Shown piece by piece: positions 4,123-16,942 of a stretch of 64,000 nt of DNA. The position numbers and the translations under genes were made by a program. The stretch comes from Candidatus Woesebacteria bacterium RIFCSPLOWO2_01_FULL_39_23. GTDB lineage: Bacteria > Patescibacteriota > Microgenomatia > UBA8517. The notes below the pieces were generated by a model. It was given only the letters and a program-made list of their open reading frames with translations, was not told the origin of the DNA and searched no databases. The first letter of the stretch is position 1; the number at the start of each line of letters is the position of its first letter. Location: positions 1,306 to 65,305 of the forward strand of contig MGHG01000007.1 of the NCBI GenBank assembly GCA_001793095.1. Direction: 5' to 3'.

Positions 4123-4905
4123 TCATGATTCTTTGAGCATGTTGTCTATCTCCGTTTTAAAGTTTTCGAATGGTAATGCTCCGGGAATTAATTTAGTTTT
4201 GCCTGTTTTTGTATCAAGCAGTATATTTCCGGGTGTTCCTGTTACACCGGCTTTTGCACCACTTTGGAAATCGCTTTCTACATGAGCTGCCGTCTTGCCA
4301 CTATCAAGACACGTCTTGAACGCACTTTGATTAAGGCCGACCTCACCTGCCAATTTGGGTAAATCATCCAGGTTCAAACCGTTATTGGAAGGGGTAACCT
4401 CAAAGATTTTATCGGTCAATTTCCAGAAACCATCATTACCCGCCAGTTCATATGCACACTCGGTAGCCTCAGCCTCTTTATCTGCTTTTTGATGGATTTG
4501 GTCTAATGGAAAATGCCTATAAACCCAAGCAACCTGACCTTTATATTCATCAACTATTTGTTTAGCAGTTGGATGAAATCTCTTGCAGAATGGGCATTCC
4601 AAGTCTGAATATTCAATTAGAAGCATCCTTGCATTCTTATCGCCTCTTACATGATCGTCGTTTCTCAACTTATCAACTTGGTCAGCATTACCGAAGGAAG
4701 GCTGAACTCCTCCTGCAGCTGGTTGTCCTCCTTGAGCACCTCCGGCGGCTCCAGCTTGTGTTCCGGCGATACGTGTGGTTCCACCACCTTCCAAGTTTTT
4801 GACTTTCTGCCAAAGCATTCCTACTGCAAAAGCAAGTCCAATTGACGCAACAAGAAGAATTGGAACTAATTTTTCAAGAAGATTACTCTTAGACTTTAAT
4901 ATCAT
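4123..4905 (-). CDS. DsbA-like thiol:disulfide oxidoreductase (thioredoxin fold, CPFC active site), membrane-anchored
   Basis: LIEYSDLECPFCKRFHP, with an N-terminal TM and a Gly/Ala/Gln-rich linker. The track start at 4932 is TTG. The ATG at 4905 (MILKSKSN...) is the more likely start. Confidence 0.8.
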   Translation of the reverse strand: MILKSKSNLLEKLVPILLVASIGLAFAVGMLWQKVKNLEGGGTTRIAGTQAGAAGGAQGGQPAAGGVQPSFGNADQVDKLRNDDHVRGDKNARMLLIEYSDLECPFCKRFHPTAKQIVDEYKGQVAWVYRHFPLDQIHQKADKEAEATECAYELAGNDGFWKLTDKIFEVTPSNNGLNLDDLPKLAGEVGLNQSAFKTCLDSGKTAAHVESDFQSGAKAGVTGTPGNILLDTKTGKTKLIPGALPFENFKTEIDNMLKES

Positions 4906-4912
4906 AGATATA

Positions 4913-4925
4913 CTACGAAGTGTAG
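4913..4925 (-). promoter_or_regulatory. Candidate BlaI/CopY-type operator copy (CTACGAAGTGTAG) just upstream of the dsbA-like start
   Basis: Same 13-mer (1 mismatch) as at 6250..6262. In both places TTCGTAGTATAT precedes the ATG on the coding strand. Confidence 0.45.
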
Positions 4926-4960
4926 TAGACAATAGTAAAGGTTGTCAATAAGTAAAAGGG

Positions 4961-5919: not shown

Positions 5920-6246
5920 TTACTTGTGTCGTTTAAGTTCATCTGTAAATGCAGTTACCGCTTCGTGTCCGTATTGGTCAACTAAAGAGTTAACAATTTT
6001 TTTAACTATCCCTTTTGCGGTTTGCTCTTTGGTTTTTTTAGGTGAATATACATATGCCTTACCTTCCATCTTTCTTGCTAAAAAGCCTTTCTCGGTCAAA
6101 CGTGTCATTATTGTCATTACTGTTGTATAAGCAATTTTGCGTTCCTTTTGAAGACATTGATGGATATCCGAAACTGAAGCATTTTTCTCTTTCCACAGAC
6201 AATCCATTACTTCTTGCTCAAGCGGTCCTAAGTTATAGCTAGTCAT
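5920..6246 (-). CDS. BlaI/MecI/CopY-family winged-helix transcriptional repressor
   Basis: 108 aa. YTTVMTIMTRLTEKGFLARKMEGKAYVYSP winged helix, 8 nt upstream of the M56 gene. There is no C-terminal CxC metal motif. Confidence 0.85.
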   Translation of the reverse strand: MTSYNLGPLEQEVMDCLWKEKNASVSDIHQCLQKERKIAYTTVMTIMTRLTEKGFLARKMEGKAYVYSPKKTKEQTAKGIVKKIVNSLVDQYGHEAVTAFTDELKRHK

Positions 6247-6249
6247 ATA

Positions 6250-6262
6250 CTACGAATTGTAG
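6250..6262 (-). promoter_or_regulatory. Candidate BlaI/CopY-type operator copy (CTACGAATTGTAG), 4 nt upstream of the blaI-like ATG
   Basis: TAC-N-GTA dyad ends reminiscent of cop/bla boxes (TACAnnTGTA). It is duplicated at 4913. Confidence 0.45.
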
Positions 6263-6290
6263 GAGATTTAGAAGAAACTATCAATACCAT

Positions 6291-6884
6291 TCAGTAACTA
6301 ATCAGTCGTATTAAAAAAGGTACTATTCTAATAGTCGGCAACTTATAGTTATAGGCAACTTTGTAGTAGATACTTGTGTATTTGTTTACTTGATCGATTA
6401 GTTTTGTCTCAAATTCCTTATCATTCTCAATTATACTTAAGGAATTTCCAGCTACTCTTTCGATCGCTGGATAAAGCAACTGCTTTTGATAATCTTCCGC
6501 CGCAGTAGAATATTGGTCTAGTTTTTCACCTGAAAGTTTCGACAGCTCACTTTCGATTTCCAGATAAATTTTTATGGATGATGGAAGTCTTCTATATGGA
6601 GAGTCTGGTTCTATATTAAACAGGACAAGATCTCTAGCTTGTTTATATTCAAAAACCAAAACATTTGACAACTTTTTGATTACCTTTACCGATTTCTTGC
6701 CTTTGTATTTTTGGTTGTAAGTGGCATCTCCCTGATAGGAATAAATCAAACCGATAATACAGATAAGCTTACCTTTATTTTTCTTAAATCCGAAAAGGTC
6801 GAAAAACTTCTTGAAACTTATTCCCAACTTAAAGCGAGGGTTGAACCGATGTCCTACGTTGCAGCACAAAAGAAGCTCAAACAA
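6291..6884 (-). CDS. Hypothetical protein
   Basis: 197-aa ORF with no recognisable motifs. It overlaps small opposite-strand ORFs, so its start is uncertain. Confidence 0.35.
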   Translation of the reverse strand: MFELLLCCNVGHRFNPRFKLGISFKKFFDLFGFKKNKGKLICIIGLIYSYQGDATYNQKYKGKKSVKVIKKLSNVLVFEYKQARDLVLFNIEPDSPYRRLPSSIKIYLEIESELSKLSGEKLDQYSTAAEDYQKQLLYPAIERVAGNSLSIIENDKEFETKLIDQVNKYTSIYYKVAYNYKLPTIRIVPFLIRLISY

Positions 6885-6912
6885 ATGCTTTATTTATCGG
6901 GTAAAAAATAAA

Positions 6913-7092
6913 ATGCAACTATCCAAAGAGGCTATAGACGAATTCGTGGTAATCTGGAAAAAGGAGTATGGTAAATCAATAAGCGAAACTCTGGCTACGG
7001 TTTATGCCAATAAACTAATCAACCTTTTTACTGCTATTTACAGACCAATAACAAATGTGAATAAAATAAATCTTGAAGAAGATAAGGGTTAG
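6913..7092 (+). CDS. Hypothetical 59-aa protein upstream of the recombinase (possible accessory or directionality factor)
   Basis: ATG at 6913 (MQLSKEAIDEFVVIWKKEYGKSI...). Position only. Confidence 0.3.
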   Translation: MQLSKEAIDEFVVIWKKEYGKSISETLATVYANKLINLFTAIYRPITNVNKINLEEDKG

Positions 7093-7106
7093 ATATATGA
7101 TTATAT

Positions 7107-7186
7107 TGAACTCAAAAATACCTTTCGGCTTTTTTAATGGCCGTCTCAGACAAGTCCGAAAGGGTTTGAGTTCAACTGGGACGGCC
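7107..7186. other. Nested imperfect palindrome, a candidate recombinase att/recombination site
   Basis: ttgaactcaaa (7107-17) pairs with tttgagttcaa (7164-74). cctttcgg (7121-28) pairs with ccgaaagg (7156-63). ggccgtc (7139-45) pairs with gacggcc (7180-86). It lies 10-90 nt upstream of the recombinase start. Confidence 0.45.
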
Positions 7187-7195
7187 ATTTAAGTT

Positions 7196-8887
7196 ATGGA
7201 AAACAAACTAATATACGTCCAGTATTCAAGAAAATCATCAGAGTCTAGAGAAAAACAGGCATTATCTATTGATGAACAAAAAGAAGAGTGTGTAAAACTT
7301 GAAAAATTATTGGACTTGAACATCCCCTACAAATTAGAAGAATCCCGTTCCGCATACAAACCAGATAATAGACCTGAATTTGATAAGCTGATTTCATTAA
7401 TAGAAGCTGGAAAAGTAAATGCCATACTAACCTGGAAGCCTGATAGGCTTTGCCGTAATCCAAAAGAAGGTGGTTATTTACTCCAATTACTACAAGGTGG
7501 TGTCTTAAAAGAGATTCGGTGTGCTGATGGTGAAACTTATACTCAAGATTCAGACCATTTAATACTCCAAATTCATTTTGGCATGGCAAACCAATACTCA
7601 AGAAATTTAAGCAAGAATGTAAAACGCGGGAACAGCTATAAGTTCTTAAATAACAAACAATGGCTTGGTCCCGCTAAACCAGGGTACTTGAATGCTCAAG
7701 AAGGTAAAGATAAGACAATAGTTGTCGATGAAGAACGTTATCCGATAATTGAAAAGGCTATTAGGTTGATTCTCTCTGGAACTCATACTCCGATGGAAGC
7801 TCTAAATGTGTTGAATAAAAAATTTGGATATAGGAGTCGGAAAACAAAATGCCAAGGTGGTAAACCAATGCATAAAAGTGGTTGGTATCGCTATCTGAGT
7901 GACCCGTATCTTTATGGTTTAATGAAGAGGAAAGAAGGAGAAGTTATGGGTGATTTCAAACCGATGTTATCTAAACCAGAATTTGACAGGTTGCAAATTA
8001 GGTTGGGTAGAAGAGGCACCAGAATTTCCAAGCACGAGATACCCTATCGAGATGTGCTCAAGTGTGGAAGCTGCGGTGGCACTGTATGTGGTGACGATAA
8101 ATGGCAAGTATATTGTCCTGCCTGTAAGGAGAAGTTTCATAAGGGGAAGAATACAACCGAATGTAAATACTGCCACACTCCAATTGAACGGATGAAAAAT
8201 CCTACAATCCTTCATTACGTTTATCTGTTCTGTACAAAAAATAAAAACCCGAATTGTACTCAAAAGATAATCTCGGTTAAAGATTTTGAGAAACTTGTTG
8301 ATGATGAGCTCCTAAAGTTTACAATTCCAGATTCTTTTCGTGATTGGGCTATCAAACACCTGAATAATTGCAACACGAAAGAGGTGGGAGATAGAGAAAT
8401 TGTCAGAACAAACCTAAAAACTGCTTATGATGACTGTGTAAAAAAGCTAGATAGCTTACTTAGTCTCAAAATCAGCCCACAGAATATCGATGGTTCGGTA
8501 ATATCTGATGAAGAGTACAACACCAAACGAAAAACGCTCCTTGATGAAAAGACCAGTCTACTGGAACAGATAAATGGAGTAGATAAGAGGCAGAATGATT
8601 GGATGGAATTATCCGAAAGAACCTTTGATTTTGCAGTTTACGCACGGCATTGGTTGGAACATGGAGACGCTAAACAAAAAAGCTCAATTCTTGCAGCTCT
8701 CGGTTCGAACATAAGGATAATGGACAAGAAACTGCTGATAACACGGCATAAACAGTATTTCTTAATAGAAAAAGGGGTAGGAGAAATTAAACAATTAGCA
8801 AGACAATTCGAACCTGGTAAAACACCCGTATTATCGGAGCATTTACTCTCTTTTGAGCCTATTCGTTCTGCTTGGCTGGGAGACTAG
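7196..8887 (+). mobile_element. Large serine recombinase (resolvase/invertase catalytic domain, recombinase domain, zinc ribbon)
   Basis: N-terminal YVQYSRKSSESREKQALSIDEQ with catalytic Ser, then the TWKPDRLCRN region, then Cys clusters (CGSCGG...C..C, C.YC...C). 563 aa. Confidence 0.9.
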
Positions 8888-8947
8888 GATTCGAACCTAG
8901 ATATACAGATCCAGAATCTGTAGTCCTACCGTTAGACGATCTCCCAA
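8876..8947 (-). tRNA. tRNA-Gln (anticodon CUG)
   Basis: Cloverleaf read on the minus strand: TGGGAGA / D-arm GTCT..GGAC / anticodon stem ACAGA-TTCTGGA-TCTGT / T-arm CTAGG-TTCGAAT-CCTAG / TCTCCCA. Its 3' end overlaps the recombinase stop codon. Confidence 0.85.
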
Positions 8948-9017
8948 TACAAAACTCTGATTAAATTCGATCTTTTAGGAATCTACGCCCGAAGCCTGTT
9001 TTAAAATATTTTTCTCT
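8929..9017. repeat. Direct repeat copy 1: the last 18 codons of the GIY-YIG gene, an intergenic spacer and the first 19 nt of tRNA-Gln
   Basis: About 80% identical to 9283..9371. Seen by eye alignment. Confidence 0.7.
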
Positions 9018-9197
9018 TTTGATTGCTTTATTCTTATCTAAACAAGCTTCATAATAAACCAATTTGATTGGCAACCGAAATTTAGTTGAACTAACTAGTC
9101 CTAATTTGTGTTTATTTACTCTTTTCTCAAGATCATTACTCCATCCAACATAGCGTTTACCATCTCTTTTACTTAACAGCACATAAGTATAATACAT
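8961..9197 (-). CDS. GIY-YIG nuclease-family small protein (YhbQ/UPF0213-like)
   Basis: MYYTYVLLSKRDGKRYVGWSNDLEKRVNKH...LVYYE...KREKYFK, the classic GIY-YIG core. 78 aa. Confidence 0.8.
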   Translation of the reverse strand: MYYTYVLLSKRDGKRYVGWSNDLEKRVNKHKLGLVSSTKFRLPIKLVYYEACLDKNKAIKREKYFKTGFGRRFLKDRI

Positions 9198-9282
9198 AAA
9201 CGCTTCCTACCCGCCCGCCATCGCAAGCCCTGGCCGCCTCGCACTGCTCAGTAAGCAGGTTGGCTCAGGCGTTGCGGGCAGG

Positions 9283-9371
9283 CCATTAGACGATCTCCCA
9301 ATACAAAACTCTGGCTAAATTCGATTTTTCAAAAATCTTCTTCCAAAACCCGTCTTAAAATATTTTTCTCT
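9283..9371. repeat. Direct repeat copy 2: a GIY-YIG 3' remnant (encodes REKYFKTGFGRRFLKNRI*), spacer and a 19-nt tRNA-Gln 5' fragment
   Basis: The minus-strand translation of the remnant keeps the same peptide as copy 1 with mostly synonymous changes (one D to N). The tRNA fragment TTGGGAGATCGTCTAATGG diverges after nt 19. Confidence 0.7.
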
Positions 9372-9399
9372 TTGAATTATACCAAAAATGAGGCTGGAG

Positions 9400-16553: not shown

Positions 16554-16628
16554 GGCCCCATCGTCTAGTGGCTTAGGACGTCAGGTTCTCATCCTGAAAA
16601 CTCGGGTTCGACTCCCGGTGGGGTCACC
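16554..16628 (+). tRNA. tRNA-Glu (anticodon CUC)
   Basis: GGCCCCA / D-arm GTCT-AGTGGCTTA-GGAC / TCAGG-TTCTCAT-CCTGA / T-arm TCGGG-TTCGACT-CCCGG / TGGGGTC-A. Confidence 0.85.
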
Positions 16629-16705: not shown

Positions 16706-16942
16706 ATGCATTATGTCTACATACTGAAATTAAGTAATAACTCAAACTATGTAGGCCAAACATCTGATCTCAAAAATAGAATCAAAGATCACAACAAAGG
16801 AAATACAAATCACACCAAGAAATTCTTACCTGTTAAATTAATTTTCTATTGTGCTTTTGAATCAAAAAAGAAAGCATTAAATTTCGAAAAATATCTCAAA
16901 TCAGGGTCTGGAAAAGCATTTAAGAAAAAAAGATTAATATAA
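16706..16942 (+). CDS. GIY-YIG nuclease-family small protein (YhbQ-like), second copy
   Basis: MHYVYILKLSNNSNYVGQTSDLKNRIKDHNKGN...LIFY...KKKALNFEKYLKSGSGK. The track start at 16688 is TTG, so ATG 16706 is preferred. Confidence 0.75.
   Translation: MHYVYILKLSNNSNYVGQTSDLKNRIKDHNKGNTNHTKKFLPVKLIFYCAFESKKKALNFEKYLKSGSGKAFKKKRLI

Follow-up and report, generated by a model that had tools for sequence, protein, structure and literature searches.

A Conserved Structured Leader, Very Probably Acting as RNA, Upstream of a tRNA-Associated Large Serine Recombinase Gene in Patescibacteria

Introduction

Directly upstream of a serine recombinase gene of Candidatus Woesebacteria bacterium RIFCSPLOWO2_01_FULL_39_23, three pairs of inverted repeats are interleaved across 87 nt. 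A sequence-only reading of the locus put this segment forward as a candidate attachment (att) site of the recombinase, with a pseudoknotted RNA leader as the alternative. Is the segment, then, under selection as DNA or as RNA, and what would it do for the gene that follows? The answer bears on how the mobile elements of Patescibacteria restrain their integrases, in a group with minimal genomes, few known regulators, and genes that mostly lack a Shine-Dalgarno site. We addressed the question in a stretch of 64,000 nt of contig MGHG01000007.1 (hereafter the window, from whose first letter all positions are counted) and in the corresponding DNA of related loci.

The Recombinase Gene and the Architecture of Its Leader

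The gene that begins just downstream of the repeats (table 1) encodes a protein identical to a hypothetical protein of Candidatus Woesebacteria RIFCSPLOWO2_01_FULL_39_23. More than 1,200 homologs were retrieved at E-values below 1e-10, almost entirely from Patescibacteria; many of them also contain a Recombinase (PF07508) and a zinc-ribbon (PF13408) domain, and 40 aligned members preserve the region of the catalytic serine, with S14, R12, and eight cysteines invariant. The nearest annotated phage relatives, for example the phi105 integrase, are only ~25% identical, and no sequence relative was found in the PDB at E below 1e-3. Judged by sequence, the window protein is a large serine recombinase (LSR) with catalytic, recombinase, and zinc-ribbon parts, the latter two recognized from its homologs.

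Table 1. Position of the leader helices, the recombinase gene, and adjoining features in the window
Feature	Position	Strand	Description and evidence
59-aa ORF	6913-7092	+	tblastn matches in 82 loci, same strand, upstream of the LSR gene; motif ...IY[RK]PIP...
Predicted sigma-70-type promoter	7073-7101	+	TTGAAG, 17-nt spacer, TATGAT; promoter scan
Arm A / A'	7106-7116 / 7165-7175	+	11 nt, 100% complementary; repeat search
Arm B / B'	7121-7128 / 7156-7163	+	8 nt, 100% complementary; repeat search
Arm C / C'	7133-7149 / 7176-7192	+	17 nt, 88% complementary; repeat search
Hairpin D	7151-7157 with 7162-7168	+	GAAA loop; present in the MFE fold and in the covariation
Large serine recombinase (integrase) gene, 563 aa	7196-8887	+	Pfam Resolvase PF00239, 1.6e-16; PHROG 95 integrase, 4e-52
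tRNA-Gln(CUG)	8873-8946	-	shares its 3' end with the final 15 nt of the recombinase ORF

The repeat search bore out the three interleaved inverted-repeat pairs of the sequence-only reading, in the order A-B-C-B'-A'-C'. The lengths given there for the first two pairs (11 and 8) stand, whereas the third, taken as 7, is 17 nt long; likewise, the feature ends not at 7186 but at 7192, 3 nt 5' of the ATG (7196). Once its single T.G is taken as a wobble, C:C' is paired at 16 of 17 positions. We refer to helix A:A' as P1 and to helix B:B' as P2; arm C lies within the loop of P2, and arm C' occupies positions -20 to -4 relative to the AUG. Hairpin D shares B' and the 5' part of A', for which positions 7151-7154 are an alternative partner. 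Relative to dinucleotide shuffles, the segment has a fold z-score of -3.0 for the + strand and of -4.2 for the - strand.

Occurrence of the Leader among Recombinase Loci

We lined up the DNA 5' of the start codons at 160 Patescibacteria loci that carry a related LSR gene. Profile and covariance-model searches recovered the same interleaved architecture in 35 of them, with arm sequences that differ in many, and all 35 covariance-model matches lie on the sense strand, immediately 5' of the recombinase ATG. A model built from the relatives matched the window once, on the + strand only (7098-7198, 80 bits, E about 1e-22). In the ~1.1 Mb of loci and in the window, a sample centered on recombinase loci, no covariance-model match was found away from a recombinase ATG; across the 35 matches of this recombinase-centered sample, the leader is constantly associated with one gene family, that of the LSRs.

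Architecture was also assessed by geometry. A test that required a pair of perfect helices, each of at least 8 bp, to be interleaved, with the second ending at most 16 nt from the ATG, was positive at 27 of 147 homologous loci and at 0 of 441 shuffled controls, and its positives include three loci (L129, L153, and L158) too divergent for the sequence model. The motif is spread over Microgenomates and Parcubacteria lineages. As an accompaniment of orthologous recombinases, the palindrome has a divided record: it is present at 35 of the 160 loci, whereas the four nearest relatives of the window protein (L006, L045, L002, and L092) have a plain AGGAG site instead. Because these closest relatives lack it, the motif is dispensable for the recombinase as such.

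A pattern scan of IMG/VR (C arm plus GGACA) returned 17 contigs, which the covariance model rejected; only L172 reached 22 bits, and inspection by eye revealed no instance. The scan and the model together gave no evidence of the motif on catalogued viral contigs.

A different conserved leader was seen over the ~95 nt before the ATG in another subfamily of these genes, at ~20 LSR loci (L119, L108, L118, L120, L126, and about 15 more). It consists of a TTGACA-N17-TAnAAT promoter followed by a long hairpin with a 3' arm (e.g., ...TTCTTAAGGC) that stops ~10 nt 5' of the ATG. It may be general in this LSR family for the gene to have a structured leader.

Covariation and the Strand under Selection

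Covariation was evaluated in two alignments. In a structure-blind MAFFT alignment of 31 leaders, made from sequence only, 89.4% of the cells were paired and both sides had changed in 29 of 36 pairs, and 0 of 500 shuffles were as good; when the partners were slid by 1-3 columns, pairing fell to 33-51%. For the other alignment, a second covariance model was fitted to P1 and P2 only, so that C:C' could be assessed without bias. Paired cells here amounted to 95.8% for P1, 89.3% for P2, and 90.4% for C:C', with double changes at 8 of 10, 8 of 8, and 12 of 17 pairs, respectively. Over both alignments, P1 is 95-96% paired and 7-8 of its 10 pairs are altered on both sides. In the covariance-model alignment, the leader helices show 3-4 different base-pair types per position, and at one pair, 30 of the 32 sequences have U.G.

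Hairpin D is also supported: it is 92-94% paired in the covariance-model and MAFFT alignments, as against at most 40% in slid controls, and at three of its pairs both partners change. The linker that follows C (L2, consensus ACAGA) tracks arm A (CUCAGA), and either can pair with A' (UCUGAG); accordingly, A, L2, and A' covary three ways, as G/G/C (15 times), A/A/T (5 times), or C/T/G (twice). Given the MAFFT alignment and no structure, RNAalifold returned a consensus made of C:C' and D.

The imperfect pairs tell the two strands apart. Non-Watson-Crick cells in C:C' comprise 62 G.U versus 3 A.C, and those of P1 and P2 comprise 22 G.U versus 10 A.C. A G.U on the sense strand corresponds to an A.C mismatch on the opposite strand and is meaningless to a protein that reads the duplex. 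Because G.U far exceeds A.C, selection acts on a single-stranded sense molecule and not on duplex DNA, and we conclude that the segment is very probably a structured RNA leader encoded on the sense strand.

A double-stranded site, either an att or accessory site of the recombinase or the operator of a repressor, would agree with the presence of palindromes, which are typical of such sites, and with the frequent location of attP next to int; moreover, the half-sites of a protein-bound palindrome can co-evolve, and the segment folds strongly on the - strand too. We nevertheless regard this reading as very improbable: the excess of G.U over A.C in C:C' has no meaning for a duplex, and with 3-4 pair types per position in three interleaved palindromes, recognition would have had to re-evolve each time. 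Strand-specific wobbles, on the other hand, fit single-stranded DNA as well as RNA, since G.T is also tolerated, and the top strand might form, for example, the origin or packaging signal of an ssDNA replicon. However, the unit is framed exactly by the conserved promoter and the start codon (see below), the local element consists of just the recombinase gene and two small ORFs and lacks genes for replication or morphogenesis, and serine recombinases act on duplex DNA, all of which leaves a DNA structure of this kind exceedingly improbable.

The Probable Attachment Junction

An integrated element should carry only the hybrid sites attL and attR, at its border with host DNA. Because the 59-aa ORF conserved upstream puts the leader inside the element, the leader is not such a border site; that the unit is interior and intact in the integrated copy is a further point against a double-stranded DNA site. 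The conservation of the whole unit, its RNA-like covariation, and a junction at the other end of the gene also told against the att-site proposal, which we therefore abandon. As a candidate LSR attachment site, the segment also had the wrong form, with three repeats over 87 nt in place of one ~40-50 bp palindrome around a central dinucleotide, and with a strand-specific G.U bias where a strand-symmetric constraint is expected.

Of the 50 loci scanned for tRNAs, almost all have an LSR ORF that runs into the 3' end of a convergent tRNA gene and stops there; the tRNA can be one for Gln, Asn, Met, Ser, Glu, or Asp. The last codons of the window gene (W-L-G-D-stop) are antisense to the CCA and acceptor stem of tRNA-Gln, and in the LSR family the CCA of the tRNA has as its antisense a Trp codon (TGG) close to the C-terminus. 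Because LSR 3' ends sit in convergent tRNAs, the integration junction should lie ~1.7 kb from the leader, within the tRNA-Gln gene of table 1, where the sequence evidence makes a true attachment junction likely. A junction thus marked at the 3' end of the gene again disfavors a duplex site in the leader, as does the search for a counterpart: in the whole 64-kb window, no further copy of the leader arms, half-site, or partner site was found. Nor did similarity between leader and tRNA exceed the non-cognate background, the longest complementary or identical stretch averaging 7.0 nt for a leader with its own tRNA region and 7.2 nt with non-cognate ones. The idea that the RNA serves as a guide in site choice or senses tRNA found no support.

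An empty site was sought by way of the neighboring Crp-like gene, and all five assemblies that contain this gene have the identical arrangement; its nearest homologs (56-60% identity) stand in non-syntenic contexts. To the left of the recombinase, a search for a displaced tRNA fragment or an inverted copy of the right end yielded nothing above chance.

Two observations concern the recombinase end of the element. A conserved 'FEP' near the C-terminus of the protein (8806-8814; alignment columns 34-43) reads TTCGAACCT in 38 of 42 ORFs. The GAACCT contained in its codons shows no synonymous variation and is invariant across 20 tRNA-Gln loci; it is the antisense of a tRNA T-loop motif and lies, directly oriented, ~84 nt before the real T-loop. 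It might be a signal at the DNA level, perhaps an att arm. At locus L035, an Rfam group I intron (4717-4896, - strand) is found where other loci have the recombinase-end tRNA, and it probably marks an intron-containing tRNA missed by ARAGORN.

Neighboring Genes and Repeats

The 59-aa ORF is annotated as a gene in five assemblies. It has no match in Pfam, PHROG, or NCBIfam and is a candidate directionality factor or regulator. Further upstream, a 197-aa ORF on the - strand (6291-6884) matches no family at all in the same three collections.

Beyond the recombinase gene, the 5' part of tRNA-Gln and the adjoining upstream sequence (8929-9024) are repeated at 9283-9378 with 83% identity, and between the two copies lie a 78-aa GIY-YIG ORF (8961-9197, - strand) and a GC-rich stretch of ~80 nt (9200-9283). 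The segment 8929-9378 looks like a small homing-type cassette in a tRNA gene, which brings a replacement 5' half. A second 78-aa GIY-YIG gene, at ~16706-16942 (deduced from L178, 1109-1345), lies just downstream of a tRNA-Glu (16554-16628), and small GIY-YIG nuclease genes may be tied to tRNA genes in this Woesebacteria genome.

On the other side, a 22-nt repeat, ATATACTACGAAnTGTAGnAGA, precedes a BlaI-like repressor gene (5920-6246) at 6245-6266 and recurs at 4908-4929, near the 5' end of a minus-strand ORF (4123-4932). It is probably the operator of the BlaI-like repressor.

Promoter and Translation Start

The predicted promoter of the window has its counterpart in 33 aligned leaders, where TTGAaA-N17-TAtAAT stands at a fixed distance and the -10 element ends 6-7 nt before an invariant G, which forms the first strong pair of P1. 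From this we infer a transcript 5' end at ~7108, near the first base of arm A. The position of the conserved promoter-like element implies that the structured unit fills exactly the interval between the predicted +1 and the start codon. The leader thus lies between the predicted transcription start and the AUG, and C' engages the ribosome-loading region in pairing.

How ribosomes load at this gene has to be seen in the context of the genome. A Shine-Dalgarno core was found at only 3 of the 37 window ORFs of at least 200 aa. Many long window ORFs have a TAnAAT-like box 7-12 nt 5' of the ATG. The start regions of the window suggest that leaderless or Shine-Dalgarno-independent initiation is widespread in this Woesebacteria genome; because Shine-Dalgarno sites are rare there, initiation probably depends on an accessible start region. 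Some members of the leader family have a GAGGG or GGGGG within C', 7-10 nt 5' of the AUG, and a CCCUC within C. This is not the case in the subfamily of the window, whose C' is without a Shine-Dalgarno-like sequence; occlusion must therefore act here through the start region generally. We also considered an upstream ORF starting from an AUG inside arm C and set it aside: six members have ATA in place of this AUG, the peptide follows a covarying helix, and the position of the stop varies.

Two Mutually Exclusive Folds

The minimum free energy fold of the sense RNA contains C:C' and hairpin D. Because D and P1 compete for one strand and both covary, the family keeps two mutually exclusive nested folds, P1 with P2 (fold 1) and C:C' closed over D (fold 2). 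Mean constrained energies over 31 members are nearly the same (-30.4 kcal/mol for fold 1 and -29.7 kcal/mol for fold 2), and the difference varies among members with a standard deviation of 5.7 kcal/mol, several of them strongly favoring one fold; for about half of them, it is the open fold, P1 with P2, that has the greater stability. For the window sequence, the corresponding energies are -27.9 and -30.5 kcal/mol. When successive prefixes of the window transcript were folded, P1 and P2 prevailed until C' was complete.

The pseudoknot named in the sequence-only reading would instead combine the helices in a single, static structure, in which P1, P2, and C:C' form together and act by constitutive damping or by binding a protein or ligand, with no switching. 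All three helices do covary, the placement of C in the loop of P2 and of C' directly after A' is the loop-to-tail arrangement known from pseudoknots, and a U-rich linker and the GGACA sequence are conserved. Yet D covaries too and cannot coexist with P1. Moreover, the linkers measure 0 nt between A' and C' and 4-6 nt on the flanks of C (0, 4-6, and 6 nt over the leader), for a P1/P2 stack of 18-19 bp and a C:C' helix of 15-17 bp; as estimated from A-form dimensions, they are too short for P1/P2 and C:C' to coexist fully. The earlier proposal is essentially right as regards an RNA leader, which the covariation and the G.U bias support; a static pseudoknot we consider unlikely, given that the covariation of D and the geometry favor two folds. 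A partial pseudoknot of P2 with all or part of C:C', but without P1, would be feasible.

The two folds suggest how the leader would work. Region 7108-7195 would serve the recombinase mRNA as its 5' untranslated leader and would function as RNA. Fold 1 would begin at the first transcribed base and leave the ~20 nt before the AUG single-stranded, which would permit ribosome loading; it should form first, because all of its parts are transcribed ahead of C'. Fold 2, by the constrained energies slightly the more stable at equilibrium in the window sequence, would free the 5' 25 nt and bury positions -4 to -20, so that initiation would be blocked. Integrase synthesis would then likely be low, pulsed, or factor-dependent, and the choice of fold might be triggered by folding kinetics, by processing of the 5' end, or by a protein or ligand.

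Two alternative folds are also the classical design of a transcription attenuator, in which C:C', with or without D, would be an intrinsic terminator before the gene and P1/P2 the antiterminator. In one subfamily (L033, L031, L013, L122, and L136), a TTTTTAT does lie between a GC-rich C' and the ATG. However, no U-tract follows the helix in the window (CATTTAAGTT-ATG) or in most members, a terminator scan found nothing at the leader, and neither arm of C:C' is sequestered by P1/P2, so that attenuation appears quite improbable. We favor, with some reserve, the interpretation that the leader probably works as a two-fold translational switch of the LSR gene.

A bolder and distinctly more doubtful interpretation is that of a responsive riboregulator of a new class, in which a cellular or element-encoded signal would set the choice of fold; the signal may be a small molecule, one of two proteins (the recombinase or the 59-aa product of the upstream ORF), or processing at the 5' end. 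If this were true, a riboregulator would time the production of a tRNA-targeting integrase in the ultra-small Patescibacteria. The leader has a clean two-state design that could be tested in vitro as a 90-nt RNA.

Comparison with Known Systems

At gathering thresholds, Rfam matched only two tRNAs in the window, and at E-values up to 10 the region 6900-7400 gave only sub-gathering chance matches (a plastid psbJ 3' UTR hairpin, sau-59, and flavi_FSE); Rfam 15 matched nothing in the leaders of 18 other instances. The literature search returned nothing relevant, either on leader structure in serine recombinase genes or on tRNA genes as the location of Patescibacteria recombinases, and we know of no structured RNA leader described for any large serine integrase gene. 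It is usually tyrosine integrases that choose tRNA genes as targets. The present serine integrases, a large family with genes that run into a tRNA gene at their 3' end, may interest those who mine genomes for serine integrases useful in genome engineering.

The attP and attB sites of phiC31, Bxb1, and phi105 resemble the leader in that it adjoins an integrase gene and forms an imperfect inverted repeat; unlike them, it stands at the wrong end of the gene and differs in strand behavior, length, and topology. With riboswitch expression platforms and with H-type (loop-to-tail) pseudoknot riboswitches, for example preQ1, SAM-II, and NAD+-II, the leader shares a length of ~90 nt, pairing of a loop to the 3' tail over the start, and exclusive helices that share a strand. 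It differs from them in having no Rfam riboswitch match and in controlling a recombinase and not a metabolic gene or transporter. Assignment to a riboswitch class was rejected, as there is no Rfam match and the conserved GGACA is explained by pairing in the alternative fold and not by a ligand pocket.

Delayed RNA folding, which together with riboswitch expression platforms and start-site-sequestering transposase leaders is the nearest functional parallel, places translation of the MS2 maturation gene and of the hok mRNA under kinetic control. There, as would be the case here, an early fold permits initiation and a stabler late fold closes the start, and the prefix folding of the window transcript agrees with this order. 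The parallel has its limits in that the timing in the LSR leader is purely inferred and that the open fold is the stabler one in about half of the members.

The stem-loop in the IS200 tnpA 5' UTR and the fold-back inhibition of IS10 and IS50, which in IS10 affects read-through transcripts only, are start-site-sequestering leaders. They share with the LSR leader a structured 5' leader that pairs the ribosome-binding region, low synthesis of the enzyme, and a location on a mobile element. They have no sequence or family relation to it, and no Rfam match links them; the LSR leader is also set apart by its two covarying folds, which begin at the first transcribed base, and by the gene that follows, which encodes an LSR. 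The leader is a new family within the known kind of mRNA leaders that control the start site.
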